From IMG/VR virus record IMGVR_UViG_3300022876_000002: DNA of 64,000 nucleotides; one strand, written 5' to 3'. Under the pieces are notes generated by a model. That model did no database searches and was not told the origin of the DNA. It saw only the letters and a program-made list of their open reading frames with translations. Shown in pieces: positions 6,814 through 60,977 of this stretch (its first letter is position 1; each line of letters opens with the position of its first letter). The stretch comes from a virus (Duplodnaviria > Caudoviricetes). Both the position numbers and the translations under genes were made by a program.

Positions 6814-6832
6814 ACACACTGTAGTAATATAG
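6814..6832 (-). promoter_or_regulatory. early promoter-like motif CTATATTACT-ACAGTGTGT
   Basis: 45 nt upstream of the groEL start; matches the 7-copy consensus. Confidence 0.7.
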
Positions 6833-25738: not shown

Positions 25739-25766
25739 CCTACTGGGGCTTGTGGGCCCCAGTAGG
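25739..25766. terminator. 11-bp hairpin cctactggggc/gccccagtagg
   Basis: intergenic. Confidence 0.7.
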
Positions 25767-25793: not shown

Positions 25794-26201
25794 TTATTTA
25801 CCACGCAGTTCTTTCAGCCTGCGCATACCCTCAGCCTGGGTCTCACGCAACGAATGACCCTTACCGTGATTGCGGTACCAGTCAATCCACTCACGGTTCA
25901 GACCGCAAGACATACCGCCTTGCAGTGGCGGTTCCTTACGTTCCACTTCAAGCAGTGCGCCAGCGGTTTTATACCATTGGTCACTAGGGCCTTGGTCGGT
26001 AGAGGCAGGATCGATAAAACTGTCGCACTCAGCAGCTTTTACTGGCGGGTTGCGGAACAGAGACTTACCCTCTTTGTCCACAGTGTTGCAAGAAGCATCC
26101 ACCATGTACATCGGTTCCTTTACACCGTCTACTACAACACGGTAAACCACCTTACCCTCGTGACTACGTCCAAGGGCATCAACACGAGCATTCTTATCCA
26201 T
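25794..26201 (-). CDS. hypothetical protein with C-terminal WxxW module
   Basis: GLNREWIDWYRNHGKGHSLRETQAEG. Confidence 0.75.
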   Translation of the reverse strand: MDKNARVDALGRSHEGKVVYRVVVDGVKEPMYMVDASCNTVDKEGKSLFRNPPVKAAECDSFIDPASTDQGPSDQWYKTAGALLEVERKEPPLQGGMSCGLNREWIDWYRNHGKGHSLRETQAEGMRRLKELRGK

Positions 26202-27204
26202 TGTCTTGTACCGGACGTGGGTCAACAACAGTTACCAAATCCTGGAGCTTGTCCAGGAGTTCTTCCAGTTCGCTTTGTTTAACCGTGTGCCAGAACGGGT
26301 TACCTACCTCAAGGCAAGCTTCCACAAGTTTGTGGGACACGTTAGGGTGCTTGCGGAAGATAGCCACAGCCATGTCTTCCATCAAATCGTTATCATGGAT
26401 ACCGACGGCGAACGCCACCCGGGTGAATTGGGTAAGGATTCGTCCCATCAGTTCAGACTTGCGCATGGTCGCACGACGGACCTCACCATAGCTACGATCA
26501 AACGAAGCCGACATCATGATGGAACGATTATTACCGATCGCCAGACCTCTACGCCCACGGAACTCGATCATGCGCGGGTATTTATCGATAAGCTCTTTGG
26601 CCTCTACCGCAGCAGCCACCTCGATAGGAGCGCCGTCAGCGGGGATAAACTCCATTCCGCCAGGAGGCCCTGCCAATGTTTGCGTGCTTTCTTCACGCAT
26701 TAGTGCGACAACCTGGGGATCGTCGGAGAGTACTTGTCCTTTGTCACAGACCTGAGCAACCCAATCACGTGCGTCAGGAATGCGCCCACGCACCACTGCG
26801 TCAAACTTCTCAGCCATAGGGCTGAGTTGTTCACAAGCAGCAAACGATTCACGGGTAAGCATGTCTCCATCCATATCACCCACCACGTCTTTGCCCATAC
26901 GAGCCAAACGACCAGACAGGTGCTTGATACGTTGTTCGGCGGCGTCCAACAGACGGTAGAAGTACATACCACGCTGGTAGAACTCGCGTTCTTCACGCAG
27001 GTAACCATTGAGCGTGTTCAGCTCGTGAGCCAACTCCTGGTCGGTCAAGTTACCCAGTTGGAGTTCACGACGATCCGCCAGGGAAGGATCGGATGCTTTG
27101 GCCAGGCTATCGAAACCTTCGTGGCCCTGAACGTAAGTGAACAGCTTAGCACCAAACTCTTCTACTGCTTGATCAGCTTTGCTTTGAAATTCATTCATTA
27201 CCAT
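26194..27204 (-). CDS. hypothetical protein
   Basis: 336 aa, helical/coiled-coil N-terminal half. Confidence 0.8.
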   Translation of the reverse strand: MVMNEFQSKADQAVEEFGAKLFTYVQGHEGFDSLAKASDPSLADRRELQLGNLTDQELAHELNTLNGYLREEREFYQRGMYFYRLLDAAEQRIKHLSGRLARMGKDVVGDMDGDMLTRESFAACEQLSPMAEKFDAVVRGRIPDARDWVAQVCDKGQVLSDDPQVVALMREESTQTLAGPPGGMEFIPADGAPIEVAAAVEAKELIDKYPRMIEFRGRRGLAIGNNRSIMMSASFDRSYGEVRRATMRKSELMGRILTQFTRVAFAVGIHDNDLMEDMAVAIFRKHPNVSHKLVEACLEVGNPFWHTVKQSELEELLDKLQDLVTVVDPRPVQDNG

Positions 27205-27631
27205 TGCTCCCGTATTGCATGAGATCGTTGAGGTTGTAATTGTCGCCGGTAAACGGCTTAGGGGCTGGGTTATTCAGTTTGAGGATACGCTCAACAGCCT
27301 CCCCACTCCAATCGATGGAACATTCACCTATCGTGAGGATGTCGCCCAGATCCCCTTTGCTCCAGGCCACATCACCATTACCACGACGGATGGAAATGGA
27401 GGTAAGGGTGTTAAACGTCTTTGGTATCCTGACGTTATACATCTTGATATTGTTGGACCAGTCGGGACGTTCCAGCTCACCACGCAGGAAGGCAATAACT
27501 TCGGAACGTTCTTCTGGCTTTAGTGGGATCTTGGAGTAAACAGCGTATTCAGTCCCGTGCTTAACTACCGTAGATCGAATTACCTCCACAATCCCCATAT
27601 CCAAGTCGAAACCAAAGACACGTTTGCTCAT
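27191..27631 (-). CDS. hypothetical protein
   Basis: 146 aa. Confidence 0.75.
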   Translation of the reverse strand: MSKRVFGFDLDMGIVEVIRSTVVKHGTEYAVYSKIPLKPEERSEVIAFLRGELERPDWSNNIKMYNVRIPKTFNTLTSISIRRGNGDVAWSKGDLGDILTIGECSIDWSGEAVERILKLNNPAPKPFTGDNYNLNDLMQYGSNGNE

Positions 27632-28098
27632 TCTTTTGCTCCCAGGGCAACCGCATACGCATGTGCCTCTTCTGGCGTCATACCGTCGTTGTAACAGATG
27701 AACAACAACCAGTCCAAGGCAACATACCCGTCGGCAGTAACGTTGCTCTTAGGAGGCTTGTAGAAGTCAGGAGGGGCTATGCCGAGATCTCTACGAATAC
27801 CTTCCTGAATAGCCACCCCGCTAGCACGAATGGCAACCGCCATTGGGCTATTAGTAAACTTACTAACCCGTGGATCGATTTCACGACGACCGATAGGAAT
27901 ACCGTCAGGACCCAAGATTACCCGAGTGTTCAGGAACTCGTTGATAGCATCGAAAGCTTTACGACCTTTTGCTACCTGCACTCCTACTAATGCATTTGCA
28001 GCAAACTGCACCCAGACTTCATTAACGACACCGTTGTCTTTGGTAAACAACGAGGGCTCGTTAACGCTGGGCTTGTACAAACCAAGATCATTACTCAT
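27628..28098 (-). CDS. hypothetical protein with two degenerate WxxW-type modules
   Basis: VVNEVWVQF..., YVALDWLLFICYNDGMTPEEA. Confidence 0.75.
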   Translation of the reverse strand: MSNDLGLYKPSVNEPSLFTKDNGVVNEVWVQFAANALVGVQVAKGRKAFDAINEFLNTRVILGPDGIPIGRREIDPRVSKFTNSPMAVAIRASGVAIQEGIRRDLGIAPPDFYKPPKSNVTADGYVALDWLLFICYNDGMTPEEAHAYAVALGAKE

Positions 28099-28502
28099 AT
28101 CAGATTGTCATCCCTTACAAAGGCGGTTACCCGTTTAGCATCAGTGGAAGGCCATTCGTGAGTGCCTTTCCAGCGAGCTGAGTTATACGTACAGTTTTCT
28201 TTGTTAGCGTACCACACCATCCAAGCCAGACTGAGACTTTTACCCAAGATGGTACATACCACCTTTTCTGGCTCAGGATAATCAATTACTCGGCGCGGTT
28301 CTTTAAGCAATTTATCAACTACTAACATACCAGCCGCTTGAGCCACAGCAATGGTGGCTCGTGGGTTCTTACGGATATACCACAGCATCCAAGCAGAACT
28401 TACCGGATAACGGTGGCTACCGGTGAAAACGCAAGGCTCGTCATTTGCAGGTTGGTATACATCGGATGCACCCAAGCGGTCGTTGACTTTGTCCTTACTC
28501 AT
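28095..28502 (-). CDS. hypothetical protein with two WxxW modules
   Basis: PVSSAWMLWYIRKN..., SLSLAWMVWYANKEN. Confidence 0.75.
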   Translation of the reverse strand: MSKDKVNDRLGASDVYQPANDEPCVFTGSHRYPVSSAWMLWYIRKNPRATIAVAQAAGMLVVDKLLKEPRRVIDYPEPEKVVCTILGKSLSLAWMVWYANKENCTYNSARWKGTHEWPSTDAKRVTAFVRDDNLI

Positions 28503-28507
28503 TATGT

Positions 28508-29101
28508 TTACTCTTTACCTAAGAAAGTTTGACTTGTTGTGAAATACACTTGATTACGGCTAAACACACAGTACTCTGTTGCATCGGCAGAACCCCTACC
28601 GCTCCCGCGGTGGATGGCTCCGTCGTAACCGAGCTTACGGAGTCGGTTGATCTCCATGAAACTATCAAAGAAACGGTACGCCTGGAAATACAAGTCATCC
28701 ACTGACCCGCCTTGGTAAAGGAAGTCAGCTACACCCTTGAAGTTTTTATTGGGGTTTAGTCGCTCGCGCCAGTTATCGGTTTCTTCGATATACTTAGCGA
28801 AGCGAATAGCGATACGTTTGGTCTCACTCCCACCCAACAACATTCTTACATGTCCCAATTCCAGGTAAGGGTCGTTAGGCTGGTTAATAAAAGGACGGTC
28901 CAGTATCAAATGAACGGGGAACACACGCGAAGTGTAGTAGTTTCCCGAGTTGGTAGTTGCTTCCGCATGAATGTTTGCGGTATCTACGTTTCCGAAGTAC
29001 AAAGCGCGGAGGTTAGACTTCGGCGTGTCGTGATGAGGATGTGCACACTCCCCACGATACAAGCACAAAGGTTTACCATCAGGACCTTTATAAAACGGCA
29101 T
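28508..29101 (-). CDS. putative ADP-ribosyltransferase (ART-PolyVal-like)
   Basis: LYRG, LYFG, FPVHLILDRP, LGYDGAIH...EYCVFSRNQV strand order. Confidence 0.6.
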   Translation of the reverse strand: MPFYKGPDGKPLCLYRGECAHPHHDTPKSNLRALYFGNVDTANIHAEATTNSGNYYTSRVFPVHLILDRPFINQPNDPYLELGHVRMLLGGSETKRIAIRFAKYIEETDNWRERLNPNKNFKGVADFLYQGGSVDDLYFQAYRFFDSFMEINRLRKLGYDGAIHRGSGRGSADATEYCVFSRNQVYFTTSQTFLGKE

Positions 29102-29102
29102 G

Positions 29103-29708
29103 TCACTTCTCCTTAAGTAGTCTCGCTAGCTCAGCGTTATCACTGATACGATCTTCTTCTTTGTAAATGTCTTGCAACTTTTGCCAGTGGGGGTCCTTGA
29201 ACCTGAAATCCACAGCAAAAGGTTTACCACTAAACCCAAATTTAGGGAACAATACTAACCGTCCCTTAAACTTACGAATACGGTGTTTAGCCATCCAGCT
29301 GATAATGGCCTTGTCGATGATTTCGTTTTCATCCTCTTCTGTCCACTTGGTGTCTTTTTCCGGATTGAGCCATTTCTCGTTGGCATCAATAGCAAACCCG
29401 TAGATAGTAGAACCATCCAGGATCATGCCATGGTTGCCCTCGTTGATTAACCCTTCGATAACCACTGGGTATTCATCAATGTCCTTAAACGCCCGCTGCA
29501 AAAACTTAGCAGGGTTAGCGGATGCGGCCATGTGCAGACAAAAGTTCTGCTGGATAAACGCTGGGACCAACGGACAGATGTACACGTTCATCTGTTTGAG
29601 TTTCTTTGGGTTGGTGGTGAAATTATCACGGAACCAACTCAGTACGTGCAGTTCTTGTTCAAACGGAGCCAAGTCCGTTGGGAACACATAAGGCGGGAAC
29701 TTACTCAT
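29103..29708 (-). CDS. hypothetical protein, paralog of 29722..30336
   Basis: EGNHG, WLN, LFPKFGFSG shared; probable start MSKFP. Confidence 0.8.
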   Translation of the reverse strand: MSKFPPYVFPTDLAPFEQELHVLSWFRDNFTTNPKKLKQMNVYICPLVPAFIQQNFCLHMAASANPAKFLQRAFKDIDEYPVVIEGLINEGNHGMILDGSTIYGFAIDANEKWLNPEKDTKWTEEDENEIIDKAIISWMAKHRIRKFKGRLVLFPKFGFSGKPFAVDFRFKDPHWQKLQDIYKEEDRISDNAELARLLKEK

Positions 29709-29721
29709 TAATACAAATCCT

Positions 29722-30336
29722 TTACAGTTTCTTGGGCATTCCGCTAAAGCCGAACTCTGGGAACAACATAACTTTCCCGCCATCAAGGGTACCGTGTTCT
29801 TCTTCCCAGCGATCGACGACGTCTTTCATGATTGCCCACTCGTCATCTGGGTGCCAGCGTTTTTGTTGTTTGTCATTCAACCAACGCGGTTGGGTGTTGA
29901 GGTTGATACCGTGAACATCACCGTCTTTAGACCAGATAACCCCGTGGTTACCTTCTTTCAACATACGCTCGATGATCTCAAGCCAGACAGCTTTCTCATC
30001 AAAGCAGGCTACCCAGAAATCAACTGGGTCCACTTCGTACCGCAAGACCGGATTCAACAACGAGCGCTGAATGAACTTAGGCACTTGCGGGTAGATCCGC
30101 TTGGCGAGGTTGTACAGATTCTTTTTCTTGGCAGCCCAGTTGTCGTAGAAGTAAGCGATTACAGCGTTCTCCTGCTCCATTGGGGTGCCGTCAACAGGGA
30201 ACACGAAGCGGCTTGGTGGGCGAGTGGAAAACTTCGGCTTACGCCAGTCACGGAAGATCTTAGCGATCTCTTTGGTGGTATCGTCAGAAACAGATACACC
30301 GGCCAGTTCATTACGGAGTTCTTTAGTAGTGTCCAT
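29722..30336 (-). CDS. hypothetical protein, paralog of 29103..29708
   Basis: EGNHG, WLN, LFPEFGFSG. Confidence 0.8.
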   Translation of the reverse strand: MDTTKELRNELAGVSVSDDTTKEIAKIFRDWRKPKFSTRPPSRFVFPVDGTPMEQENAVIAYFYDNWAAKKKNLYNLAKRIYPQVPKFIQRSLLNPVLRYEVDPVDFWVACFDEKAVWLEIIERMLKEGNHGVIWSKDGDVHGINLNTQPRWLNDKQQKRWHPDDEWAIMKDVVDRWEEEHGTLDGGKVMLFPEFGFSGMPKKL

Positions 30337-30340
30337 TACC

Positions 30341-31153
30341 TTATCCTTTCATATACTTGTTAATTGCTTCTTGTAGCCCGGTCGGTTTGCGAGTGAGTAC
30401 TACACGACCCGTTATAGAACGCAAGTCGACTTCGATTTCAATGGCGTAAGCATCAAACAATTCTGGCGTAAGTAGTGAGTTCTGCAACTCATGCATTACT
30501 GACGTGGCGATGGTAGACCGCACAAAACACTCTGCCTGGTTAGCCATACGCTTGGTAATCCAATCCATCCAGCTGGGATTGATAACCAAAATGGTGTTCT
30601 CTGGATTGAAGGCTGAGAACATGTGTGGTTCGTCAATCAAGAACCCATGCTGTGTAAGCAGGTGGTTGGCTTCATAAACCGTGTTGTACACACGCTCGAA
30701 CAAACGGGAGTTAAATGGACCTACTTGCGGCACAGCAAGCAAGTGCAGGAGTCCACACAAGGAGTCCAGTTCTTTTTTGGAGCTACCTATTACACCACCG
30801 CGCTGTTCAATACCCTTAGCCCAGTCATCAACTGCTTTGCCATAGGCTACATGTCGCGCCATTTTGCCTTCGGACCCATCTGGATTAGGGCCGAATGCTT
30901 CTGTATAAGTGTGGAGTTGGCGCATGGTCTCAATAACTGTCTTGATGGTATCGGCAGCAAGTGGCTCAGTAATTACCGCATGCAGTTCAAGAAACAGAAG
31001 TCCTATCTGATGAACTTGTTCTGGCAACGATACCTGGTGGTGCAAGAACGTTCCATGATTTGTAATCCAACGCATGACAACTGCTTCGAACTTGTTGGAC
31101 ACACTCAGTTGGTTGGTAGCTCGCGAGTACTCACCATCACCTGCTTCAAGCAT
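30341..31153 (-). CDS. hypothetical protein with WxxW module
   Basis: VINPSWMDWITKR. Confidence 0.8.
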   Translation of the reverse strand: MLEAGDGEYSRATNQLSVSNKFEAVVMRWITNHGTFLHHQVSLPEQVHQIGLLFLELHAVITEPLAADTIKTVIETMRQLHTYTEAFGPNPDGSEGKMARHVAYGKAVDDWAKGIEQRGGVIGSSKKELDSLCGLLHLLAVPQVGPFNSRLFERVYNTVYEANHLLTQHGFLIDEPHMFSAFNPENTILVINPSWMDWITKRMANQAECFVRSTIATSVMHELQNSLLTPELFDAYAIEIEVDLRSITGRVVLTRKPTGLQEAINKYMKG

Positions 31154-31394
31154 CTTCTAACGCTCCACTGAAAGTCACAGTTGCCTTGCCGTCACGGCTA
31201 ACGGTAGCGGTGACACCTGGCTTGGCTTTGATGAATGCCGGGGCACGTTCAGCCACTACGTCCAGGATAGGGTCGATCCCTTCAAATGCCTGAGACTCGT
31301 GCAGAACATACCAGCCAATCCAATCACGCGAAACAATCCACCCCATGTTAGGTGTCTTACGTAGCAGGGCTGGTTCTTTCTTGTGCTTTCCCAT
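31146..31394 (-). CDS. small protein consisting largely of the WxxW module
   Basis: IVSRDWIGWYVLH. Confidence 0.7.
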   Translation of the reverse strand: MGKHKKEPALLRKTPNMGWIVSRDWIGWYVLHESQAFEGIDPILDVVAERAPAFIKAKPGVTATVSRDGKATVTFSGALEDA

Positions 31395-31403
31395 AACTAA
31401 TCC

Positions 31404-31781
31404 TTAGCTGGTTTGTTGCTCGCCTGGCTTAACACCGACGTACGCTTTAATACCGTTGAGAATGAAATCCACACTGGTGTCAGTGAGCTTGTCCGCACCA
31501 AAGAACTGTACGGTCATGCGCATGTCTTTCTTGTCGATCACCGAGTGCATGCTGAAAAACGGCACCTGGGAAGGACCGCGTTGTTCTACTACCAGGATAA
31601 CACCAACGTTTTGTTTCTTTTCGTTCTTGCCTACGCTGGTGTTGAAAAGGAAACGACGACCATGCAGTTCCTTGGGAACTACGTCCTCGTCACCGAAGGC
31701 TTGTTGCAGAACGACCTTGTTGGTTTCAATGTAGGTCTGCAGAGCGGTGTAGACTTGTTTGAAAGGGGCTGTGCGTGCCAT
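31404..31781 (-). CDS. hypothetical protein, tandem triplet member 3
   Basis: VPKELHGRRFLFN. Confidence 0.8.
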   Translation of the reverse strand: MARTAPFKQVYTALQTYIETNKVVLQQAFGDEDVVPKELHGRRFLFNTSVGKNEKKQNVGVILVVEQRGPSQVPFFSMHSVIDKKDMRMTVQFFGADKLTDTSVDFILNGIKAYVGVKPGEQQTS

Positions 31782-31789
31782 GATGGTCC

Positions 31790-32221
31790 TTAGTGCAAAG
31801 TACGTGGAGTAGTAGGAGGAGTGGGGTCGTTTGCTGCTTCTGGCTGTGGGTTGGTGTCAGTCGCCAGGAGTAGTTCCAGACCGGTGAGCAATGCTGCGAG
31901 TTCTTCAACACTGAAATCAGGGGTAACCTGGCCGTCAGTTACTGGGTAGTTTGTGGAGTGGGTTGACTCGCGATCCTTCAGCACATAAAAGTAGCAAGCC
32001 ATCACGGTTTGGTCACCAATGGTTTCCTCGATCCCGATGATGAGCAAATTATTGCCGTAGTTGTCACCACCCAGACCAGCATTAAAACTGAAGATACGTT
32101 TGTCCAGACTCTTCGGTACCGAGTTACCACCCTTGAGCATGATCGTGGGTTTCAGGTTATGCTTGCGCACATACTCGGTGAGATCAGTGTGCAGTTTGAC
32201 AACCGATTGGTAATCTTTCAT
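31790..32221 (-). CDS. hypothetical protein, tandem triplet member 2
   Basis: VPKSLDKRIFSFN. Confidence 0.8.
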   Translation of the reverse strand: MKDYQSVVKLHTDLTEYVRKHNLKPTIMLKGGNSVPKSLDKRIFSFNAGLGGDNYGNNLLIIGIEETIGDQTVMACYFYVLKDRESTHSTNYPVTDGQVTPDFSVEELAALLTGLELLLATDTNPQPEAANDPTPPTTPRTLH

Positions 32222-32230
32222 AATACGACC

Positions 32231-32668
32231 TTAATGTAGTGTTTTGTTAGCTGGGACAGCAGCTTCCTGGAGCTCGGTAGTAGTCCAGGTCTGGATTTGG
32301 CCAGCCGGGATAGTGCCGCTCAGGTAAACCATCAGATTGATCAACAGGATTTTTACCCAGTCTTCTTCGATCCGCTCGTCAGTCAGGTTATCGACGTTGA
32401 GACCGTTGGTTTCACGGTTACCATAAATAACCATAAACGGTACGTGGTCAGTGAACGTATTATCTTTCTCTTCACCGATAAAGATACCGCTGTCACCAGC
32501 ACCAGCCATGTCGGTTACCAGGGTATAGTAGAAGAAACGACCTTCCAGTGGGGTCTTTACTTCCCCTGTGGATTTAACTGAGATATACAAGCCTTCGGCA
32601 CCTTTTTCGGTACAGTGTTCGAAAAGCTTTTCCATCATTACACCCAAATCGGCTGCGTCGATACGCAT
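32231..32668 (-). CDS. hypothetical protein, tandem triplet member 1
   Basis: VKTPLEGRFFYYT; start MRIDA after a GGAGG RBS. Confidence 0.8.
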   Translation of the reverse strand: MRIDAADLGVMMEKLFEHCTEKGAEGLYISVKSTGEVKTPLEGRFFYYTLVTDMAGAGDSGIFIGEEKDNTFTDHVPFMVIYGNRETNGLNVDNLTDERIEEDWVKILLINLMVYLSGTIPAGQIQTWTTTELQEAAVPANKTLH

Positions 32669-32693
32669 AAGACCTCCAAACAAAATTGACTTG

Positions 32694-32712
32694 CTACACC
32701 TTAGTAATATAG
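32694..32712 (-). promoter_or_regulatory. early promoter-like motif CTATATTACT-AAGGTGTAG
   Basis: upstream of the 32668 start, just downstream of the 32737 hairpin. Confidence 0.7.
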
Positions 32713-32736
32713 ATGTATTAATCGTTTAAAGTTACC

Positions 32737-32769
32737 TACCCTACCTACCCTTTTGGGGTAGGTAGGGTA
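32737..32769. terminator. 14-bp hairpin taccctacctaccc/gggtaggtagggta
   Basis: intergenic. Confidence 0.75.
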
Positions 32770-32778
32770 TACCGGTAT

Positions 32779-33396
32779 TTAGTAAAGTGACACGTGGTCA
32801 ACAGACTTGACAAAGGTAACTTCGAACGGGTTGTGTATACCAGGAATTGGTGTAAATACGGTCAGGTCTTGGGCGTAGTCTTTGGCAATTTTGGCCGCCG
32901 CTACCTTCCAGGCTTCTTGACGGCTTACACTGTGACGGTGGGTATACCAGTCAATCCACTCGCGGTTGATCACCGCACCGGAATGGTTGTCATCGTGGTA
33001 GACTTTGGGTTCTTCTGGACCATCGTTCTCGATTTTCCAGAGAGCCTTAACCAGTTTGTCCACTACGGTAATAACCGGCAGGCGGTTACCTTCAGCGTCT
33101 TTGGTGGCTATAGCCAGTACACCAGGAGTAATACGTGGCGCTGCCATACGTTTAACTACTTCTTGACGGATGAGGGGTTCCACGTCCTTGTAGAAGAACC
33201 GATAAACGGTCGCGCCGTCGGTAACGATACCGATGTTCAGTTCACCGGTGGAGGCCTCAGGGAAACGTACCAACAGCCATTCAGTGAACTGCCGGTCGTT
33301 CATTTTCTGCAAGAGGTTGAGCGCCAGCTCTTGGGCCTGGCGCAGGTTGTCACCTTCCAATTCAACCAGGAAATTCTTGCTCACACGTGTAGCCAT
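32779..33396 (-). CDS. hypothetical protein with WxxW module
   Basis: VINREWIDWYTHRHSVSRQEAWKVA. Confidence 0.8.
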   Translation of the reverse strand: MATRVSKNFLVELEGDNLRQAQELALNLLQKMNDRQFTEWLLVRFPEASTGELNIGIVTDGATVYRFFYKDVEPLIRQEVVKRMAAPRITPGVLAIATKDAEGNRLPVITVVDKLVKALWKIENDGPEEPKVYHDDNHSGAVINREWIDWYTHRHSVSRQEAWKVAAAKIAKDYAQDLTVFTPIPGIHNPFEVTFVKSVDHVSLY

Positions 33397-33410
33397 TGTC
33401 TTACTCCTTG

Positions 33411-34304
33411 TTAGAGCGCTTCGGTAATGCGCACTTTAGTTACTTGATGCATGTTGAAGCCAAACGTACCTTTGTAGATGCACAAGCCGTCCACATGAAT
33501 GGTCGACGCATCCCAACCTTTGGCTTTAGCCAGGTCTTCGGCAATGCGATGTGTAGCAGCTGTGACCAGTCCCAGAATACTGGAAGAGGTCTTGTCACGT
33601 TGACGCACTAGCAACCAGACTAAATACGTAGGGTTAACGAAATACTCACCATCCACCTGCAACCCTTTAACCGGTGGCATGTCAACCAACCCTGACCCCC
33701 TGTACCAGGCACATAACACATCAGTAAACTGGTTCAGCAGCCCAATAATCAACTCGCCGGTAACTTCGTAAACGGGGCTATCTACTGACAGTTTAGCACC
33801 TTTATCCAAGTCACTCAGACTGAACACTACGTTACCGACCTGTTTAGAAAAGAAACTACATTGGAACTTTTCTTTGTCGATACGTACCAAGAAGTTACCT
33901 AGGTCATACTCAGTAAGGTTATCTACATGATGACTGTACACACCCAGGGCGATGTGGTACATGACAATCTCGTAAATATCGCCCTGGTACGACTTCATAC
34001 TGAACGTCGATCGTTTGGGTTGTGACAACCAATGCAGGAAGATAGAGTCCAGCGCACCGATTACCCAGTTGCGGTCACATTGGGTTCCCCATTGTTCATC
34101 CGGCCACATCAACTGACCAGATGCACCAACACTAACTGCCTTGATTCCATTTACCCAGAAAGAATATTCGTTGAGTGCACTGTAGTGGTACTCGGACAGT
34201 TTAAGACAAACACTACCGTCTTGGCTGTAGATACCGCCATCTTGGGCATACACACCCATTTTGCCAAGTACCGAGAACTTTTCAGCTAAAGCTTTATCAG
34301 ACAT
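33411..34304 (-). CDS. hypothetical protein, ~300-aa tandem triplet member
   Basis: 297 aa; FVNPTYLVW module near C-terminus. Confidence 0.8.
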   Translation of the reverse strand: MSDKALAEKFSVLGKMGVYAQDGGIYSQDGSVCLKLSEYHYSALNEYSFWVNGIKAVSVGASGQLMWPDEQWGTQCDRNWVIGALDSIFLHWLSQPKRSTFSMKSYQGDIYEIVMYHIALGVYSHHVDNLTEYDLGNFLVRIDKEKFQCSFFSKQVGNVVFSLSDLDKGAKLSVDSPVYEVTGELIIGLLNQFTDVLCAWYRGSGLVDMPPVKGLQVDGEYFVNPTYLVWLLVRQRDKTSSSILGLVTAATHRIAEDLAKAKGWDASTIHVDGLCIYKGTFGFNMHQVTKVRITEAL

Positions 34305-34313
34305 GGCTGCTCC

Positions 34314-35297
34314 TTAATAGCAGATAACTTCTTCCTTAATCTCGACAATTTCGAACTGTCGCGACTCCAAGTTCTTGATACGAGCTTCGTACCGACTACC
34401 CTCTGGAGCAGGACGCCGCTTCTCCAACTGATGTAAAGCGCGTTTGACACCATCTACAGTCAGCTGCTCCAACGTACTAGGTCGGCCTTTGGCGTCGTTC
34501 AGCTCACTCCACATAATCCAGGCTGGGGTAACAAACCGCTGATTACCAGCTACCATGTAAGTAACTGGTGGCTCTTTATCCAAACGGCCAGAGTCATGCC
34601 AATGCTCACGTACATGGTTATAGAAACTAGACATGACACAAGTCATGATCCTGGTGTCTATTTTGTTAGAGTACTGTGTACTGACGTGTTTAATACCATC
34701 GGACACCACGCAGTAATCAAACAAGTGCTCATCCAGGTGTTCGCCTGGCAGGCGCAGGTACACAGAGAACATTCCGTTCTTCTGATCTACCTTGATGAAG
34801 AAGAAACCCAAGTCCCAATCTACCTGAGTCAGGAAGTTGCTGAAAATACCAACCCCTTGCAACCATCTGCCTAGCTCGTGCATATCGCCGTGCGTGTGCT
34901 CGATGCGGAAACCTTTACCGCCCTCACGCACAACCATGTTGCGCCACTCACCGCCAGTTTTGTCAGTGCGTAACCAATCGAGGAAAAACTCTTGCAAGAT
35001 GCTGGAGAGCTTATCGATACCGTACAGTTCTTCTGCTGCTGGAGTAGGCCAGTTAAAGAAGTCAGTGGCCTTAGACCAGCAAGCCAGTTGCATCCCATTA
35101 ACAGTCAGTGCAAACCTGACACCGTAAGCATCCACCCGGTCATTCCAGGAGAGTATAGTAGTCTGGTCCTTGCTCACCAACTGTTGCTTGAAATGGAATA
35201 AACCGTAACGTACGTAACTAGCCATTTGCATGAAAAAGTCGTGACGTTTCTTGTCACGACGGTCTAGCGCATCCCTTACTTTACCCATGCCCGGCAC
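34314..35297 (-). CDS. hypothetical protein, ~300-aa tandem triplet member
   Basis: 327 aa; FVTPAWIMW; ends IVEIKEEVICY. Confidence 0.8.
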   Translation of the reverse strand: MPGMGKVRDALDRRDKKRHDFFMQMASYVRYGLFHFKQQLVSKDQTTILSWNDRVDAYGVRFALTVNGMQLACWSKATDFFNWPTPAAEELYGIDKLSSILQEFFLDWLRTDKTGGEWRNMVVREGGKGFRIEHTHGDMHELGRWLQGVGIFSNFLTQVDWDLGFFFIKVDQKNGMFSVYLRLPGEHLDEHLFDYCVVSDGIKHVSTQYSNKIDTRIMTCVMSSFYNHVREHWHDSGRLDKEPPVTYMVAGNQRFVTPAWIMWSELNDAKGRPSTLEQLTVDGVKRALHQLEKRRPAPEGSRYEARIKNLESRQFEIVEIKEEVICY

Positions 35298-35300
35298 TCC

Positions 35301-36242
35301 TTAGTAAACTACGGTTTCCTTGATCTCGATGATCTGGAACGATAACGCGTACATATCTAGGAAACGTACACGGTAGATGTTACTTGGCAAGTTGGACTCT
35401 TCTGCCAAATTACCAGCAATTGTAGCTACTGCTTTCTTGAAAGCAGTGGTACCAGACCAGTGGGCTTCAATATGACTGGGGTCACCACCGAAGATCTGCC
35501 ACGCCAGCCACAGGGAATTAATGGCACGGACGCCGGTGAAATCAGTAACCCATTCCCACTGTTGTGGTTCTTTGGCAATCAACCCGCTAGTTAGCAGGAA
35601 GTCGCGGTAGTGTTTGGTAAGGCGGACAAAGATTCCCAATACCACGGCAGGTGTAAGCGAAGCATCCAGCATGCGGAAGTCAAAGATGTCTTCCGGGCGT
35701 TCTGAATTCAGAGTAACCTGGATTACTTCTTTTGCGAGGTTGGTATTGACAACGCTGATTGCTACACCATCACCATCTTTCAAAGACACTTCAAACACAT
35801 CAAAACGCCACGTACGTTTGAGGTGAGTCAAGAAACCAGTCTGTAACAGCGTGCTAAGTACCTCTGGCACGCGATTGGTGAAATCCTTACCAACCATCTT
35901 GGTGGTGATAGACGAATAGATTTCTTGTAGTTCTTCTTTGTCCGAGTTGATGTACCGAACGCAGATAGCACGCAAAATTCCATCCAACTCCTTGATGGGA
36001 TAAACCGCCTTGATCTCTTCGCGACCAAAGTAGTTAAAGGAGTGGTCCATACCAGAGTAGTAACCAATGTTCAGGTTCTCTACGAACAACCCAATGTTAG
36101 GCTGTGTCCTGGAACCAAAGCTGTCAGGACTTACCTGGATATAAGTACCTTCCTGACCGCTATCAAACTTACTGCCTGGGTCGAACTCCGCACCATAAGT
36201 GCGCATTTTCGAGACCTGCTTGGCAAAAAAATTATTATCCAT
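35301..36242 (-). CDS. hypothetical protein, ~300-aa tandem triplet member
   Basis: 313 aa; AINSLWLAW; ends IIEIKETVVY. Confidence 0.8.
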   Translation of the reverse strand: MDNNFFAKQVSKMRTYGAEFDPGSKFDSGQEGTYIQVSPDSFGSRTQPNIGLFVENLNIGYYSGMDHSFNYFGREEIKAVYPIKELDGILRAICVRYINSDKEELQEIYSSITTKMVGKDFTNRVPEVLSTLLQTGFLTHLKRTWRFDVFEVSLKDGDGVAISVVNTNLAKEVIQVTLNSERPEDIFDFRMLDASLTPAVVLGIFVRLTKHYRDFLLTSGLIAKEPQQWEWVTDFTGVRAINSLWLAWQIFGGDPSHIEAHWSGTTAFKKAVATIAGNLAEESNLPSNIYRVRFLDMYALSFQIIEIKETVVY

Positions 36243-36558
36243 GGAAACGTGATTCCTTTTTGGTACGTTCCCTAAGGATCAGTTGCTTACCGCCCTTAGG
36301 GTGTTGTGTTTCAGAGATTACTTCAAAACCAAAATGTGATACCAAGATAGCCCGGGAGTCTGCTACAGGTTGGATAGTCACACAACCGGTGTCCCGCCTT
36401 TTAAGCTTCTTCATCTCTCCCAGAACAGGCAAGTGATAAACAGCGTAAGTGTACTCGTCAATAAGCTCCTCAAAGAGCTCGCGAGCCTTCTGCTCGTCAA
36501 GCCCTTCGAAGAGTTTAGTGAAACGAGCCGTAAGTATGGACTCGTCTTTTTCTGACAT
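36235..36558 (-). CDS. hypothetical protein
   Basis: 107 aa. Confidence 0.7.
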   Translation of the reverse strand: MSEKDESILTARFTKLFEGLDEQKARELFEELIDEYTYAVYHLPVLGEMKKLKRRDTGCVTIQPVADSRAILVSHFGFEVISETQHPKGGKQLILRERTKKESRFHG

Positions 36559-39887: not shown

Positions 39888-39906
39888 ATACACCCAAGTA
39901 ATACAG
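39888..39906 (-). promoter_or_regulatory. early promoter-like motif CTGTATTACT-TGGGTGTAT
   Basis: upstream of the 39844 start. Confidence 0.7.
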
Positions 39907-39948
39907 GTTTATAATAGCCTAGAAGTTAAATTAACCGCCCATAAGTAA

Positions 39949-40394: not shown

Positions 40395-40604
40395 TTACTC
40401 CTTGGCCTTGCTACGGACACTTATCTGTGTAATACAGGAGCCCTTTTTAATCTTTTTTACAAGACGCTCACATGCAGCGACTCTTAACGTACGACTGCAT
40501 TGCTCCTTGTTAGGAATCTCTTGATGGTAGTAGGAATGCTTTATGTAATCAGCACCACCATTCTCACCAATTTTAGCTAGTGGAAGATCCATACACAACT
40601 CCAA
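40395..40604 (-). CDS. small basic hypothetical protein
   Basis: 69 aa. Confidence 0.55.
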   Translation of the reverse strand: MELCMDLPLAKIGENGGADYIKHSYYHQEIPNKEQCSRTLRVAACERLVKKIKKGSCITQISVRSKAKE

Positions 40605-50824: not shown

Positions 50825-50843
50825 ATACGTCAAGGTAATATAG
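50825..50843 (-). promoter_or_regulatory. early promoter-like motif CTATATTACC-TTGACGTAT
   Basis: shares upstream ATTATAAAC with the 39897 copy. Confidence 0.65.
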
Positions 50844-50856
50844 GTTTATAATCCCT

Positions 50857-57374: not shown

Positions 57375-60300
57375 TTAAGGTAAGAGTTCGCTTTGCTTAA
57401 GGAACACAAAGTCGCCGTCAACTTGTGGCTGGCCAGAGCTGACAGGAATGATCCCTCCCTTACGGTAGGAACTCAACTCGAGGTCACCAATCAAGAATGG
57501 TTGGAAACGTTCGATCGTCAGGATCTGTGTAGCACTTGTGGTAATCGTCGCCACATGCATACGTCGAGCGGAATGACGTAGCTTGGTATCAGAGATCAAG
57601 TAACGCCCCCGACGGTCCTCCAAGGTAACGTAAACGTAGAACGTTTTGTTGTATGGGGCTGAGTCGATATCCCGTAGGTCAATGCTGGTACCAGGAACAC
57701 TGTAAGGTGTGCCGTTTACCATCATGGTTACACCGTCTTGGAAGAACACGGTCCACCCTACCGCTGGATAGCCAGTAGGACCCATGTAGATGTCTACCGA
57801 GTTATCTGGGTTTGTCCTGCTGAAGACCCTACCTACACCACCAGTTGCCTCATAAGGTGGGATGGTGGTAGAGAAGGCTAACGTGCCGTTCTCTGTAGTG
57901 GTCCCGCCAACCCGGAAATCAGCAAGGCCGACTTTAGGAATGGGCACAGTCAAGTCACCTGGACTCCACCCTACACTGTGTGCCGTCATGGCCTCGAACT
58001 TGTTGGTCGTCGTGTTAATGACGAAGTACGAAGTTTGACGAGTGTAAATGGTACCGACCGAGTTAGTGCTGTACGGGAGAATGGAGAACCCTTGGATCAG
58101 GTTACCATCACGGTACATCTGCAGCGAACTCTGTGTCACAGCCCCTGGGATAACCAGTTGTTGTTCGGCCACCCGTACGTTAGCAGCAGACCGGTGTGCC
58201 GCTGACCGATCCAACTCAGTAATGTCTTTCAACAAATACACGTCAGGGTGATCAGCATTAGGGTTTTCTATGACCGGGCGGAACAGTACATGGATCAACC
58301 GCATGAAGGCTTTACTAGGGTCAGAGAACGAGATAATCGCCACACCCAAGTTAAGACCTTTGAATGCTCCTCCGGCGACATCTTGGAGCAGACTGATCGA
58401 AACACTCCATGGCAGGTAATCCGTATACTCAGCAGGGATCATTGCCTTGAACTTATCTAACAGATCCTGACGGCAACCGTAGAAAGTATCTGCTTTATAA
58501 GTAACCCGCTTAGCTGCTGTCTCGATGGTCTTCGAATGTGTGCGTGGGCACGAGAGGACCATGTTGTTCGCGGCAGGTGGTTTAAACAAGGCAGCACGGG
58601 GGAACAGATGTCTAGCTCCCATGCTGCTGTAACCCATGTACGAGAAAGACGTACTACCACACTCGGTATTACCTGCGGTCAACACAGCCGCAGACCCGCT
58701 CATGCCGATCGGTGGATCCTCATAAGTGAGGTTGGTGTTGAACACGTCGTTGGTTAATGGGCGAGACCGTACGTTGCTGTAGGTCAAGTTAGTTAACTCT
58801 GGACGTACCGCGTATGGACCAGTAACCGTGCGGAAAAACACCTTACGGTTGTTAGCAGCAAGGTCCTGTGCCATGTAGAGCTCGCCATCATCCTCGTATG
58901 TAGCGCGAGACGGAGTGGTACCACTGAGCAATGGAGACATAACTACTGGTACAACGTTCCTGGATACAGCAAGCGGGGCTGCTACCTTGTCCATGGGTTT
59001 GGTCATTACATCCGCACCGCTTACCCGGTCTGCGTAAATACAAACCGTCAAGGACCGTGGGAAATTCAAACCACTACCAGAAGTAGAGATCAGAATGTCC
59101 CCGTTATCCAGGATAGTCACCGAGGCGGTAGAGTTCTGGATAACAGCGTTGTAGAACTGACGATAGAACCGTTGCGACTGTGCGTCGCGTTGTGCCTGAG
59201 TGAGGTTAACGAAATCAACCTCGTTAGTAGGCGGTCGTGACGTTTCGATCAATGCCCCAGTAACTGGGTTGAGCTGGTAGGCTATTGAATACTCACCTTG
59301 AGCAGTTGCCTGCGCACCATTCACCAAACGAGAGGCGTTGGCATACATGATGAAGCAGATATACCCTAGGGCTGAGTTGGTGGCGTGCTTAGCAGCAAAG
59401 CACCCAGTACGGCCGTTCTTGTTAACCGCTGTTGCTGGTTGCAGGAACGTGGTAGGACCTACACGCTTGTAGCCAGCCTCAGGAGCAGCGCTCTGCCAAA
59501 CCCACGGACGATACGAGTCAGCATTGGTGTATTGCACACCATCGTAGTCCTTGTAGGTAACAGGCATGTGTACCCAAGTCGCATCAGAGGCGTTGGCCAA
59601 GGCAGACAATGGACACTTAAAGAAAGTACTGAGTTCGTTAATCCCAGCCCCGTTACCAATATGCAGGATGGCGTAGTCACCGACACGCAGGATGTTGGTA
59701 CGTGATTCGTTATCCTTGTAAGTAGTGCCTACCTTAGCCCAAACCGCAGTCATGTCCATTTTCACGAACTGATGGGCACTAGCCTCCAAAGTACCGTTAG
59801 CCAGTGCCAGGTAATACTCACTGGTAATCAGATCAGCTACCATTATCAGATCCGTGTTACTACCAGCGATTACCGTGGTAGGGGTAAAGCCACGCGAACT
59901 TAAAGAAGGTGCGTCATACTTAAAGCCAGTAAACACGATGTTGGCTTTGGTGGTGTCGTATTCCGTGCAATACGAGTAGTACAAACCAGCGTTACGTCCG
60001 TCGTTGTGCGCAGTTACCATCATCAGTAACCCGCTCTTTTCCAGAACGATAGCCGACGACACAGACAACCCACCTAAGCCTTCGAACGAACCACTGATAT
60101 TTGGTGGAATATAGGAATCCCCACCGTAACGACTGATAGGCATCACACCCATGTCCATCGAGTCATCAGTGTTTAACGTCGTGTCACCGATCATTGCCAT
60201 TACACCTTCCGGTGTAGCTAACAGATTGGCTGCGGTACCCACAACGTGATCCGCCAGGTTGCCGGTGGCGTAGTTGGGGTGTTTGTCCATTTCCGCCATG

Positions 60301-60977
60301 AGTTTGGTAAAGACATGGGGGTTGTTGTAGTTCAACGAGTGGTCATTAACACGAGTGTTCTGGGCGTCACGTAGTGCGTACAGCTGATCAAAGAAAGCCT
60401 TGATCGGGGTAGAGATCTGCTGCCATGGGCCGTATGGACGCTGCTGGATGCTCTTAGCAATATGAACGAAAAAGCTAGTCAGCTCAAACCAACCAGTCAA
60501 TTCCGTCTTGATGTTGTGGTAGTGTAGCCCAGCTGGAAACGTTAGCGGGAGATCAATGATCTGGTTCCAGTCGACTGTACGTCCTGGGGTCTTCACTTTC
60601 TCCAGCAAGTCCTTGAGACCGTTACGCACCACGAAGTAAGCGCCAGTAGACTGGTAGCTAACAAACACTTTAGTGTTCGCTGCTAATACAGCATCCGACA
60701 GCCTTACGAAGCACATGATAGGACGCCCAGTAACCGCTACGAGAGGGATAAACTCTTCCTCTACCCAGTAATCGGTGTCACGGGTTAAAGCTACGCCAGC
60801 GGCGTTGTAGACGGTTACAATGGGTACCCCATTTGCAGGGTAGTCGCCAAAGAAAGGAGAGCCATTCGGGATAACCCATGGACAGGTCTTATCCTCGATT
60901 AGGATCTCTTCCTTAACGACTTTGTTGTTGGGGTTAGTACCCCGTACATCGAAGTCTTTAATTACTTTAATATCCAC
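57375..60977 (-). CDS. putative tail fibre protein (1200 aa)
   Basis: HSLNYNNPH...HPNYAT, PPNISGSFEG, C-terminal SSYRKGGIIPVS; GTG start. Confidence 0.8.
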   Translation of the reverse strand: MDIKVIKDFDVRGTNPNNKVVKEEILIEDKTCPWVIPNGSPFFGDYPANGVPIVTVYNAAGVALTRDTDYWVEEEFIPLVAVTGRPIMCFVRLSDAVLAANTKVFVSYQSTGAYFVVRNGLKDLLEKVKTPGRTVDWNQIIDLPLTFPAGLHYHNIKTELTGWFELTSFFVHIAKSIQQRPYGPWQQISTPIKAFFDQLYALRDAQNTRVNDHSLNYNNPHVFTKLMAEMDKHPNYATGNLADHVVGTAANLLATPEGVMAMIGDTTLNTDDSMDMGVMPISRYGGDSYIPPNISGSFEGLGGLSVSSAIVLEKSGLLMMVTAHNDGRNAGLYYSYCTEYDTTKANIVFTGFKYDAPSLSSRGFTPTTVIAGSNTDLIMVADLITSEYYLALANGTLEASAHQFVKMDMTAVWAKVGTTYKDNESRTNILRVGDYAILHIGNGAGINELSTFFKCPLSALANASDATWVHMPVTYKDYDGVQYTNADSYRPWVWQSAAPEAGYKRVGPTTFLQPATAVNKNGRTGCFAAKHATNSALGYICFIMYANASRLVNGAQATAQGEYSIAYQLNPVTGALIETSRPPTNEVDFVNLTQAQRDAQSQRFYRQFYNAVIQNSTASVTILDNGDILISTSGSGLNFPRSLTVCIYADRVSGADVMTKPMDKVAAPLAVSRNVVPVVMSPLLSGTTPSRATYEDDGELYMAQDLAANNRKVFFRTVTGPYAVRPELTNLTYSNVRSRPLTNDVFNTNLTYEDPPIGMSGSAAVLTAGNTECGSTSFSYMGYSSMGARHLFPRAALFKPPAANNMVLSCPRTHSKTIETAAKRVTYKADTFYGCRQDLLDKFKAMIPAEYTDYLPWSVSISLLQDVAGGAFKGLNLGVAIISFSDPSKAFMRLIHVLFRPVIENPNADHPDVYLLKDITELDRSAAHRSAANVRVAEQQLVIPGAVTQSSLQMYRDGNLIQGFSILPYSTNSVGTIYTRQTSYFVINTTTNKFEAMTAHSVGWSPGDLTVPIPKVGLADFRVGGTTTENGTLAFSTTIPPYEATGGVGRVFSRTNPDNSVDIYMGPTGYPAVGWTVFFQDGVTMMVNGTPYSVPGTSIDLRDIDSAPYNKTFYVYVTLEDRRGRYLISDTKLRHSARRMHVATITTSATQILTIERFQPFLIGDLELSSYRKGGIIPVSSGQPQVDGDFVFLKQSELLP

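Follow-up and report, generated by a model that had tools for sequence, protein, structure and literature searches.

ADP-ribosyltransferases (ARTs) are reported from more than 40% of jumbo phages (PMC9503650). Among the enzymatic modules predicted in phage polyvalent effectors they are the most common, yet for no member of the ART-PolyVal family does a target seem to be known. Iyer et al. 2017 (PMC5512222) described the active site of the polyvalent-protein ARTs as a His on strand 1, a Tyr on strand 2 and an Asp on strand 5, and grouped these domains with Tox-ART-HYD2, apart from the R-S-E clade of Alt and VIP2. Stand-alone ARTs of the polyvalent type in jumbo phages have been covered by comparative-genomic surveys (PMC7824862, PMC9503650). 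The literature that we searched, which omits much of the subscription literature, contains no biochemically characterised member of the corresponding Pfam family, PF18760, and the activity of the family is thus itself a prediction.

The window analysed here is the whole 64,000-nt stretch of phage DNA, and the gene under study lies at 28508-29101 on the minus strand. The gene and the parts of its product that are needed below are as follows.

28508..29101, minus strand: ART gene, 197 aa, ATG start and TAA stop; predicted stand-alone R-type ART-PolyVal-like ADP-ribosyltransferase
29054..29056, minus strand: codon of R16 on strand 1 (Y-R-G-E); predicted NAD-binding Arg, at the His position of H-type domains
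28997..28999, minus strand: codon of Y35 on strand 2 (Y-F-G), followed by a helix
28925..28927, minus strand: codon of R59 at the start of strand 3; subfamily-specific conserved Arg
28628..28873, minus strand: helical insert, residues 77-158, with an E-T-x-x-W motif (E106, T108, W111); candidate target-recognition subdomain
28574..28576, minus strand: codon of E176 on strand 5 (E-Y-C-V-F); predicted catalytic Glu

The original prediction called this product a stand-alone ADP-ribosyltransferase-like protein on the strength of a series of motifs, and all of them are present in the translation of 28508-29101 in the order claimed: LYRG (residues 14-17), LYFG (34-37), VFPVHL (60-65), DRP (68-70), LGYDGAIH (157-164) and TEYCVFSRNQV (175-185). 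The only PHROG matched by the ORF is 8642, whose function is unassigned (E = 1e-26). That the protein stands alone is also borne out, the gene being translationally coupled to separate genes on either side and its closest relatives being 189-205 aa long. Its Shine-Dalgarno-like AAGGAG sits within the 3' end of the upstream gene (junction AAGGAGAAGTGAcATG) and a gap of 5 nt follows downstream, from which we take it to be a separate, translationally coupled gene.

An alignment with 26 close homologues (44-92% identity) shows that R16, G17, E18, Y35, F36, G37, R59, D160 and E176 are invariant down to 44% identity, and that R96 and R100 are nearly so. An exhaustive profile search extends the comparison to 180 domain instances, ~98% of which keep the residues at the R16 and E176 positions. 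With such conservation the motifs are no product of chance. The strand-1 position, which aligns with the His of canonical ART-PolyVal domains, is R in 166 of 168 non-gap instances, and the strand-5 position is E in 174 of 177. The strand-2 position is more varied: Tyr is invariant in the close family and occurs in 38/180 instances, and most of the wider subfamily has Ser or Thr. T108 and W111 of the helical insert are nearly invariant across the 180 instances.

The structure was modelled by AlphaFold2 (AF2) with the 26-sequence homologue alignment as input (pLDDT 87.5, pTM 0.81). Strands are formed by residues 14-20 (with R16), 35-37 (Y35-F36-G37, then a helix at 39-45), 57-65, 161-166 and 175-179 (with E176), so that the quoted motifs fall on strands 1 to 5 of an ART fold, as had been proposed. 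The insert forms helices between residues 82 and 156 with pLDDT 92-97; the canonical H-type domain 1 of Tunturi_5 has a shorter insert.

The model was compared exhaustively with 48,161 representative PDB chains using VIA-align. Nearly all of the best 46 matches are ART-superfamily chains, covering model residues 1-190; their Z-scores (2.9-6.4) are each middling, in a range that the tool calls common, and the case for the fold is made by the uniformity of the list together with the positions of the conserved residues. Among these matches are tankyrase (TNKS1, Z = 5.6), diphtheria toxin (5.3), ParT (5.2), PARP1 (5.2), AcrIF11 (4.5), MbcT (4.4), Arr (4.4), ExoA (4.4), Vis (3.6) and HopU1 (3.1); tankyrases, PARPs, diphtheria-toxin relatives, RES toxins, cholix, Tpt1, Tne2 and a fungal NADase are also listed. 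Foldseek gave weak matches to the same set. An ART fold was thus found by both of the structural searches, and the modelled protein shows the fold of the ADP-ribosyltransferase superfamily, with R16, Y35 and E176 on strands 1, 2 and 5 as predicted NAD-binding and catalytic residues. No link to a solved structure came from searching PDB sequences with the protein itself, the profile of the close family, a broad profile of 52 members or both Tunturi_5 domains; the only matches were spurious, to coiled coils or periplasmic binding proteins.

The top structural match, 9k3a_B (Foldseek probability 0.97, VIA-align Z = 6.4), is gp27 of the pre-ejectosome of cyanophage A4. We considered it as a solved ART-PolyVal domain and rejected it, the 129 aligned residues being scattered over chain residues 471-1601. 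The protein has no match to PF18760, nor to the ART family HMMs even with filters off, and the structure paper does not mention ADP-ribosylation. Chain B of 9k3a corresponds to gp27 of Anabaena phage A-4L (L027:20116-25269), an ejection protein whose sequence lends no support to an ART domain.

Assignment to the ART-PolyVal type, the second part of what had been proposed, stands in a qualified form. A Pfam scan of the protein gives no match even at E ≤ 1, and the PF18760 gathering score of 31.2 bits is not reached. The assignment comes through the relatives: 20 of the 26 close homologues match PF18760 at E ≤ 1 (best 7.7e-8), five carry it as a precomputed annotation, 34 of 52 distant stand-alone homologues match it, and it is essentially the sole Pfam match among the 78 close and distant relatives scanned. 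The gathering score is passed by the module homologous to the window protein in P0040 (49.4), P0047 (63.7) and gp225 of Tunturiibacter phage Tunturi_5 (49.2). In the last of these the match lies inside a 1,262-aa protein adjoining the portal gene, in which Pfam finds a nucleoside 2-deoxyribosyltransferase-like domain (Nuc_deoxyri_tr2) followed by two ART-PolyVal domains, the second being the segment homologous to the window ART. Membership of the gene in PF18760 is therefore supported at the level of sequence through its relatives, while its own score is below the Pfam threshold and its active-site residues, R-Y-E, are not the published H-Y-D.

A profile search with the family recovers 419 representative clusters at E ≤ 0.001, split about evenly between stand-alone proteins (170-300 aa) and giants reaching 5,812 aa. 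Of the 150 representatives listed, about half are likewise stand-alone. The R-type module also occurs within polyvalent proteins of 1,000-5,812 aa, whereas the window gene is a separate ORF of 197 aa. Fourteen viral contigs carry the module in ORFs of 1,000 to more than 3,900 aa, and contigs of jumbo-phage size carry it in ORFs of 176-304 aa. A tblastn search against phage genomes gave 30 records, all of them jumbo phages, and a megablast search of the 6-kb neighbourhood against phages gave no match. Intact stand-alone copies occur in the cultured phages PhiEaH1 (Erwinia; L028:2318-2902), Eowyn (Klebsiella) and KpGz_1 (Klebsiella).

The active-site positions R16, Y35 and E176 agree with the published His, Tyr and Asp only at the strand-2 Tyr. 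An HMM was seeded on the canonical H-type first domain of Tunturi_5 and iterated over the polyvalent proteins collected. It recovers 100/102 R-type modules, and the H-type and R-type domains therefore belong to one sequence family. Within it, near-complete domains of the same polyvalent proteins fall into two sharply different classes, 106 of the H-type and 98 of the R-type.

Strand 1: H-type, [Y/F]-H-G-[T/S], with H in 97/106; R-type, [Y/F]-R-G-E, with R in 93/98
Strand 2: H-type, poorly conserved; R-type, [S/T]-F
Strand 3: H-type, variable; R-type, Arg in 83/98 (the R59 position)
Strand 4: H-type, G-[Y/F]-D-G; R-type, G-[Y/F]-D-G-x-x-H
Strand 5: H-type, variable; R-type, E-Y-x-x-F, with E in 92/98 and Glu or Asp at -2 in 61/98

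The window protein is, judged by these patterns, of the R-type, which would form a distinct subfamily of ART-PolyVal with the pattern R-[S/T/Y]-E and conserved R59, D160 and H164. It differs from most R-type domains on strand 2, where it and all of its clade have Tyr for Ser/Thr, and at -2, where it has Ala: the [E/D]-x-E motif of ~56% of the subfamily is absent (A174; D-A-T-E). The apparent split between R-type and H-type was not found in the literature consulted for the family, and the founding description does not mention it.

We regard it as probable, with confidence somewhat above even, that the gene encodes a soluble, single-domain, NAD+-dependent mono-ADP-ribosyltransferase of the R-type ART-PolyVal subfamily that is made early and acts on a host macromolecule. 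By analogy with established ART enzymology, R16 and Y35 would hold NAD+ and E176 would stabilise the oxocarbenium-like transition state. From the context, ADP-ribose would then be passed to a host macromolecule, most likely a protein, and the helical insert with its E-T-x-x-W motif may pick the target. The setting of some relatives favours this reading, with a macrodomain gene beside the homologue in phage Eowyn and, in Tunturi_5, fusion to a nucleoside 2-deoxyribosyltransferase-like domain and a second ART; the window itself has no ADP-ribose eraser or NAD-salvage gene, which counts against it, as do the missing [E/D]-x-E and the lack of a Pfam match.

Active-site residues can be lost in this family: the homologue of the SPN3US group lacks strands 1-2 and the Glu, and a metagenomic copy (L009) has Gln for Glu. 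Such copies make the strict conservation in the clade of the window protein more telling. They also give some substance to the idea of a catalytically dead ART-fold binder acting as a sensor of NAD+/ADP-ribose or as a protein decoy, as do the missing [E/D]-x-E and the Tyr where most relatives have Ser/Thr; the invariance of R16, G17, E18, Y35, R59, D160 and E176 across the 26-member clade is what a maintained active site would give, and we consider a dead protein highly improbable. The SPN3US copy itself (ACQ60_gp088, L003:2866-3393 / L026, with ~19 related Salmonella phages) keeps the helical insert and the GYDGAIH strand, and is probably an inactive derivative kept across the group.

Several enzymes in the list of fold matches use NAD+ in other ways. 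MbcT, RES toxins, Arr, Tne2 and a fungal NADase (Z = 3.1-4.4) invite the view that the protein consumes or converts NAD+ with no macromolecular target, being a NADase or a RES/MbcT-like NAD+ phosphorylase, or that it modifies a small molecule in the way of Arr. Yet the NADase-type and Arr matches score no better than the protein-modifying ARTs, the large conserved insert suggests recognition of a macromolecule, and depletion of NAD+ would harm a phage whose window carries a NAD-dependent DNA ligase; this function is very unlikely.

The macromolecule-modifying ART that we favour can be set against four described groups. With ART-PolyVal (the 'N4-like' ART or Tox-ART-HYD2-related clade; PMC5512222, PMC9503650) it has in common the strand-4 G-[Y/F]-D-G and the x-x-x-F ending of strand 5; the same module is present in phage polyvalent proteins, and it is likewise predicted to be an NAD-dependent, host-modifying enzyme. 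The differences are the R, Y and E of the active site, the subfamily-specific R59 and H164, the helical insert of ~80 residues, a score below the Pfam threshold, and a separate 197-aa gene in place of a part of a polyvalent protein.

With the R-S-E clade (T4 Alt/ModA/ModB, VIP2 and the cholera-toxin group) it has in common an aromatic-Arg-Gly strand 1 and the strand-5 Glu. Most R-type relatives, but not the window protein, also have the strand-2 Ser/Thr and [E/D]-x-E, and the enzymes of this clade are phage-encoded host modifiers, as is predicted for R-type ARTs. The window protein has Y-F-G versus S-T-S on strand 2 and A-T-E versus [Q/E]-x-E leading into strand 5. Neither it nor any of the 78 scanned relatives matches a Pfam family of the R-S-E clade, and R-S-E structures score below H-Y-E members against the model (Vis, Z = 3.6; HopU1, Z = 3.1). 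The relationship to T4 Alt/Mod and DarT put forward in the original prediction appears to hold at the level of the superfamily and no closer, Iyer et al. 2017 (PMC5512222) having placed the polyvalent-protein ARTs in a clade other than that of Alt/Mod; DarT is absent among the fold matches listed by Foldseek and VIA-align, and such absence does not exclude likeness.

The H-Y-E clade (PARP/tankyrase, diphtheria toxin) supplies the best discrete structural matches. The strand-2 Y-F-G resembles the Y-F-A of PARPs, as does a single strand-5 Glu followed by Tyr, and against the strand-5 motifs tabulated in PMC7955679 the E-Y-x-V-F of the window protein (T-E-Y-C-V-F) resembles the PARP type, while its strand 1 (Y-R-G) resembles that of an R-S-E enzyme. 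It differs from the H-Y-E enzymes in its Arg for the strand-1 His, its different helical insert and the lack of regulatory or polymer-forming elements, and no sequence similarity to PARP or diphtheria-toxin domains is detectable.

The fourth comparison is with PDB 6kyf, deposited as 'an anti-CRISPR protein', which we take to be AcrIF11, presumably acting as an ART on a CRISPR complex. It too is a small single-domain protein (Z = 4.5, 109 residues aligned); it has 137 aa, no helical insert and no sequence similarity to the window ART. Nothing in the analysed data links the window gene to CRISPR.

The ART gene is the eighth of 13 close-packed genes (gaps of at most ~10 nt) between two strong hairpins. 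The features of this unit that bear on its expression and on the immediate neighbours are the following.

32735..32770, minus strand: hairpin at the upstream boundary, ending the preceding unit (-29.5 kcal/mol, z = -4.24)
32704..32722, minus strand: promoter-like element ATTAATACATCTATATTAC (degenerate version of ATTATAAACCTRTATTAC), where the 13-gene unit probably starts
29722..30336, minus strand: paralogue of the upstream partner (g29722; 34% identity, blastp E = 5e-28)
29103..29708, minus strand: upstream partner gene (g29103), 201 aa from an internal Met; translationally coupled to the ART gene
28095..28502, minus strand: downstream gene (g28095), 135 aa, with two WxxWY modules; start 5 nt past the ART stop
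25739..25766, minus strand: hairpin at the downstream boundary, end of the 13-gene unit (-23.8 kcal/mol, z = -3.50)

A phage-specific promoter-like motif, ATTATAAACCT[A/G]TATTAC, has two perfect 18-nt copies in the window, neither directly before the ART gene. Sites of the motif or its core, all on the minus strand, lie at 39898-39915, 50835-50852, 32704-32722, 40429-40437 and 6824-6832, and the 3' core CT[A/G]TATTAC occurs 5 times versus 1.05 expected. The copy at 32704-32722 lies directly past the strong hairpin and ends in CTATATTAC, as the perfect copies do; it has three mismatches, and a search relaxed to that degree is near chance (7 found versus 4.7 expected). Scans for sigma-70 promoters and intrinsic terminators gave counts at or below shuffle expectation. 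After each of the two bounding hairpins the sequence continues with a common tail, GGTA(A)CTTTAA, in place of a T-run; this tail may be a phage-specific terminator signature.

The virion genes of the window lie at 54-64 kb, ~25 kb from the ART gene. One of them, at 57375-60977, encodes a 1,200-aa protein that matches proteins from Pseudomonas phage EL and from the Erwinia phages Joad and RisingSun along its entire length (~34% identity), and the phage is therefore phiKZ-like. Jumbo phages that encode their own RNA polymerases have phage-specific AT-rich early-promoter motifs (PMC7598289). This operon context, a promoter-like motif in a phiKZ-like phage, is compatible with early expression. From it we suppose that the ART may be made early through the phage's own RNA polymerase and act in the cytoplasm, either in host takeover or in countering a defence.

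Delivery with the virion is a competitor for the timing: the ART would be packaged and then injected, as T4 Alt and the polyvalent proteins are. Iyer et al. (PMC5512222, PMC9503650) argue that packaging in the head is common among phage ARTs, and the same module sits in giant proteins adjoining portal genes, as in Tunturi_5 gp225, polyvalent forms making up about half of the 419 clusters. The window gene, by contrast, belongs to a long array of small non-structural genes with a promoter-like motif ahead of it, far from the virion genes, and its product is fused to neither MuF nor any other head-associated domain and lacks an N-terminal extension, the family match beginning at residue 1. Packaging of this protein is accordingly judged quite unlikely.

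The upstream partner is called at 201 aa in the database as well. In four related contigs (L004, L005, L006 and L009; ART 42-67% identical) the gene immediately upstream of the ART belongs to the g29103/g29722 family, and a g28095- or g27628-like gene lies downstream; in L004 and L006 the gene that follows is g28095-like. The AF2 model of the g29103 product (pLDDT 87) combines a helical bundle at the N-terminus with a beta/alpha part at the C-terminus, and gave no informative fold match, only mixed helical-bundle matches with Z < 6. A role as an immunity protein, raised by a weak Pfam match to Imm74 (E = 0.018), was rejected when the fold comparison gave it no support.

The placement of the ART among WxxW-module genes agrees with what we find: eight of the 18 genes between 25.8 and 36.6 kb contain W-x-x-W, with nine occurrences in all. 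From 25794 to 36558 its context is always [N/S]xxW[I/M/L]xW[Y/I/Q/S], in genes that are otherwise unrelated; the whole window has 15 occurrences versus ~4.6 expected, none of them in the ART. The module genes include 28095-28502, 25794-26228, 32779-33396, 31146-31394 and 30341-31153, and NREWIDWY is identical in two genes. Distant paralogy (E = 1e-8 and 1e-4) links three adjacent genes of ~300 aa each (33411-34304, 34314-35297 and 35301-36242); close to its C-terminus each product carries a single motif of the W-x-x-W type or one related to it.

The nature of the target can also be weighed in this setting. Like DarT, pierisin/Scabin or CmdT, the ART might act on nucleic acid (the DNA or RNA of the host), with the phage nucleus rather than an antitoxin protecting the phage genome. 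ART-fold enzymes with such targets exist (DarT, cited in PMC9503650), the phage belongs to the phiKZ-like group, described as shielding its DNA in a proteinaceous nucleus (PMC7598289), and the subfamily keeps extra basic residues (R59, with R96 and R100 nearly invariant). Macrodomain, NUDIX, ARH and NAD-salvage genes were sought with Pfam and PHROGs among 71 window ORFs and none was found; the lack of a macrodomain or other eraser would fit the same idea. Against it, Iyer et al. 2017 (PMC5512222) and the 2022 survey (PMC9503650) predict protein targets for the family, the protein has no nucleic-acid-binding domain, and DarT, pierisin and Scabin are absent among the fold matches listed, an absence that does not amount to exclusion. 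On balance a nucleic-acid target seems unlikely, and a host protein is still the target that we favour.

A broader scenario, which we offer as speculation and hold to be rather improbable, is that the R-type ART of nucleus-forming (phiKZ-like) jumbo phages escaped from polyvalent proteins delivered with the virion and turned into an enzyme that ADP-ribosylates, early and in the cytoplasm, a target that the phage has in common with its host (DNA, RNA or the transcription machinery), the phage nucleus serving as the 'immunity' in place of an antitoxin or macrodomain. A separate part of the same speculation is that the R-[S/T]-[E/D]xE subfamily, nested in the H-type family, would be an extant intermediate form linking the two great classes of ART active site.

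What this gives for the window alone is one hypothetical gene soundly annotated by function, and not a new kind of system. A small, soluble, single-domain ART is far easier to handle biochemically than a polyvalent protein of 3,000 residues. Annotation is affected by the division into H-type and R-type, since R-type domains are under-detected by the Pfam model, which misses the window protein entirely; the division also bears on the choice of catalytic-dead mutants, and perhaps on the relationship between R-S-E and H-Y-E ARTs.

Some relatives deserve mention in their own right. The ART homologue of Klebsiella phage Eowyn (L001:4010-4570) is directly preceded by a macrodomain gene (L001:3558-4001; PF01661, E = 1.5e-8), which ends 9 nt before it, and the two are a possible writer/eraser pair. 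Tunturi_5 gp225 (L002:2432-6220) is annotated as 'MutT/NUDIX hydrolase'; Pfam finds no NUDIX domain in it, and the public annotation is probably wrong. The polyvalent proteins P0036 (4,536 aa), P0118 (4,957 aa) and P0037 (3,560 aa) each contain at least a dozen tandem ART-PolyVal-type domains, mostly of the H-type, with one or a few of the R-type.
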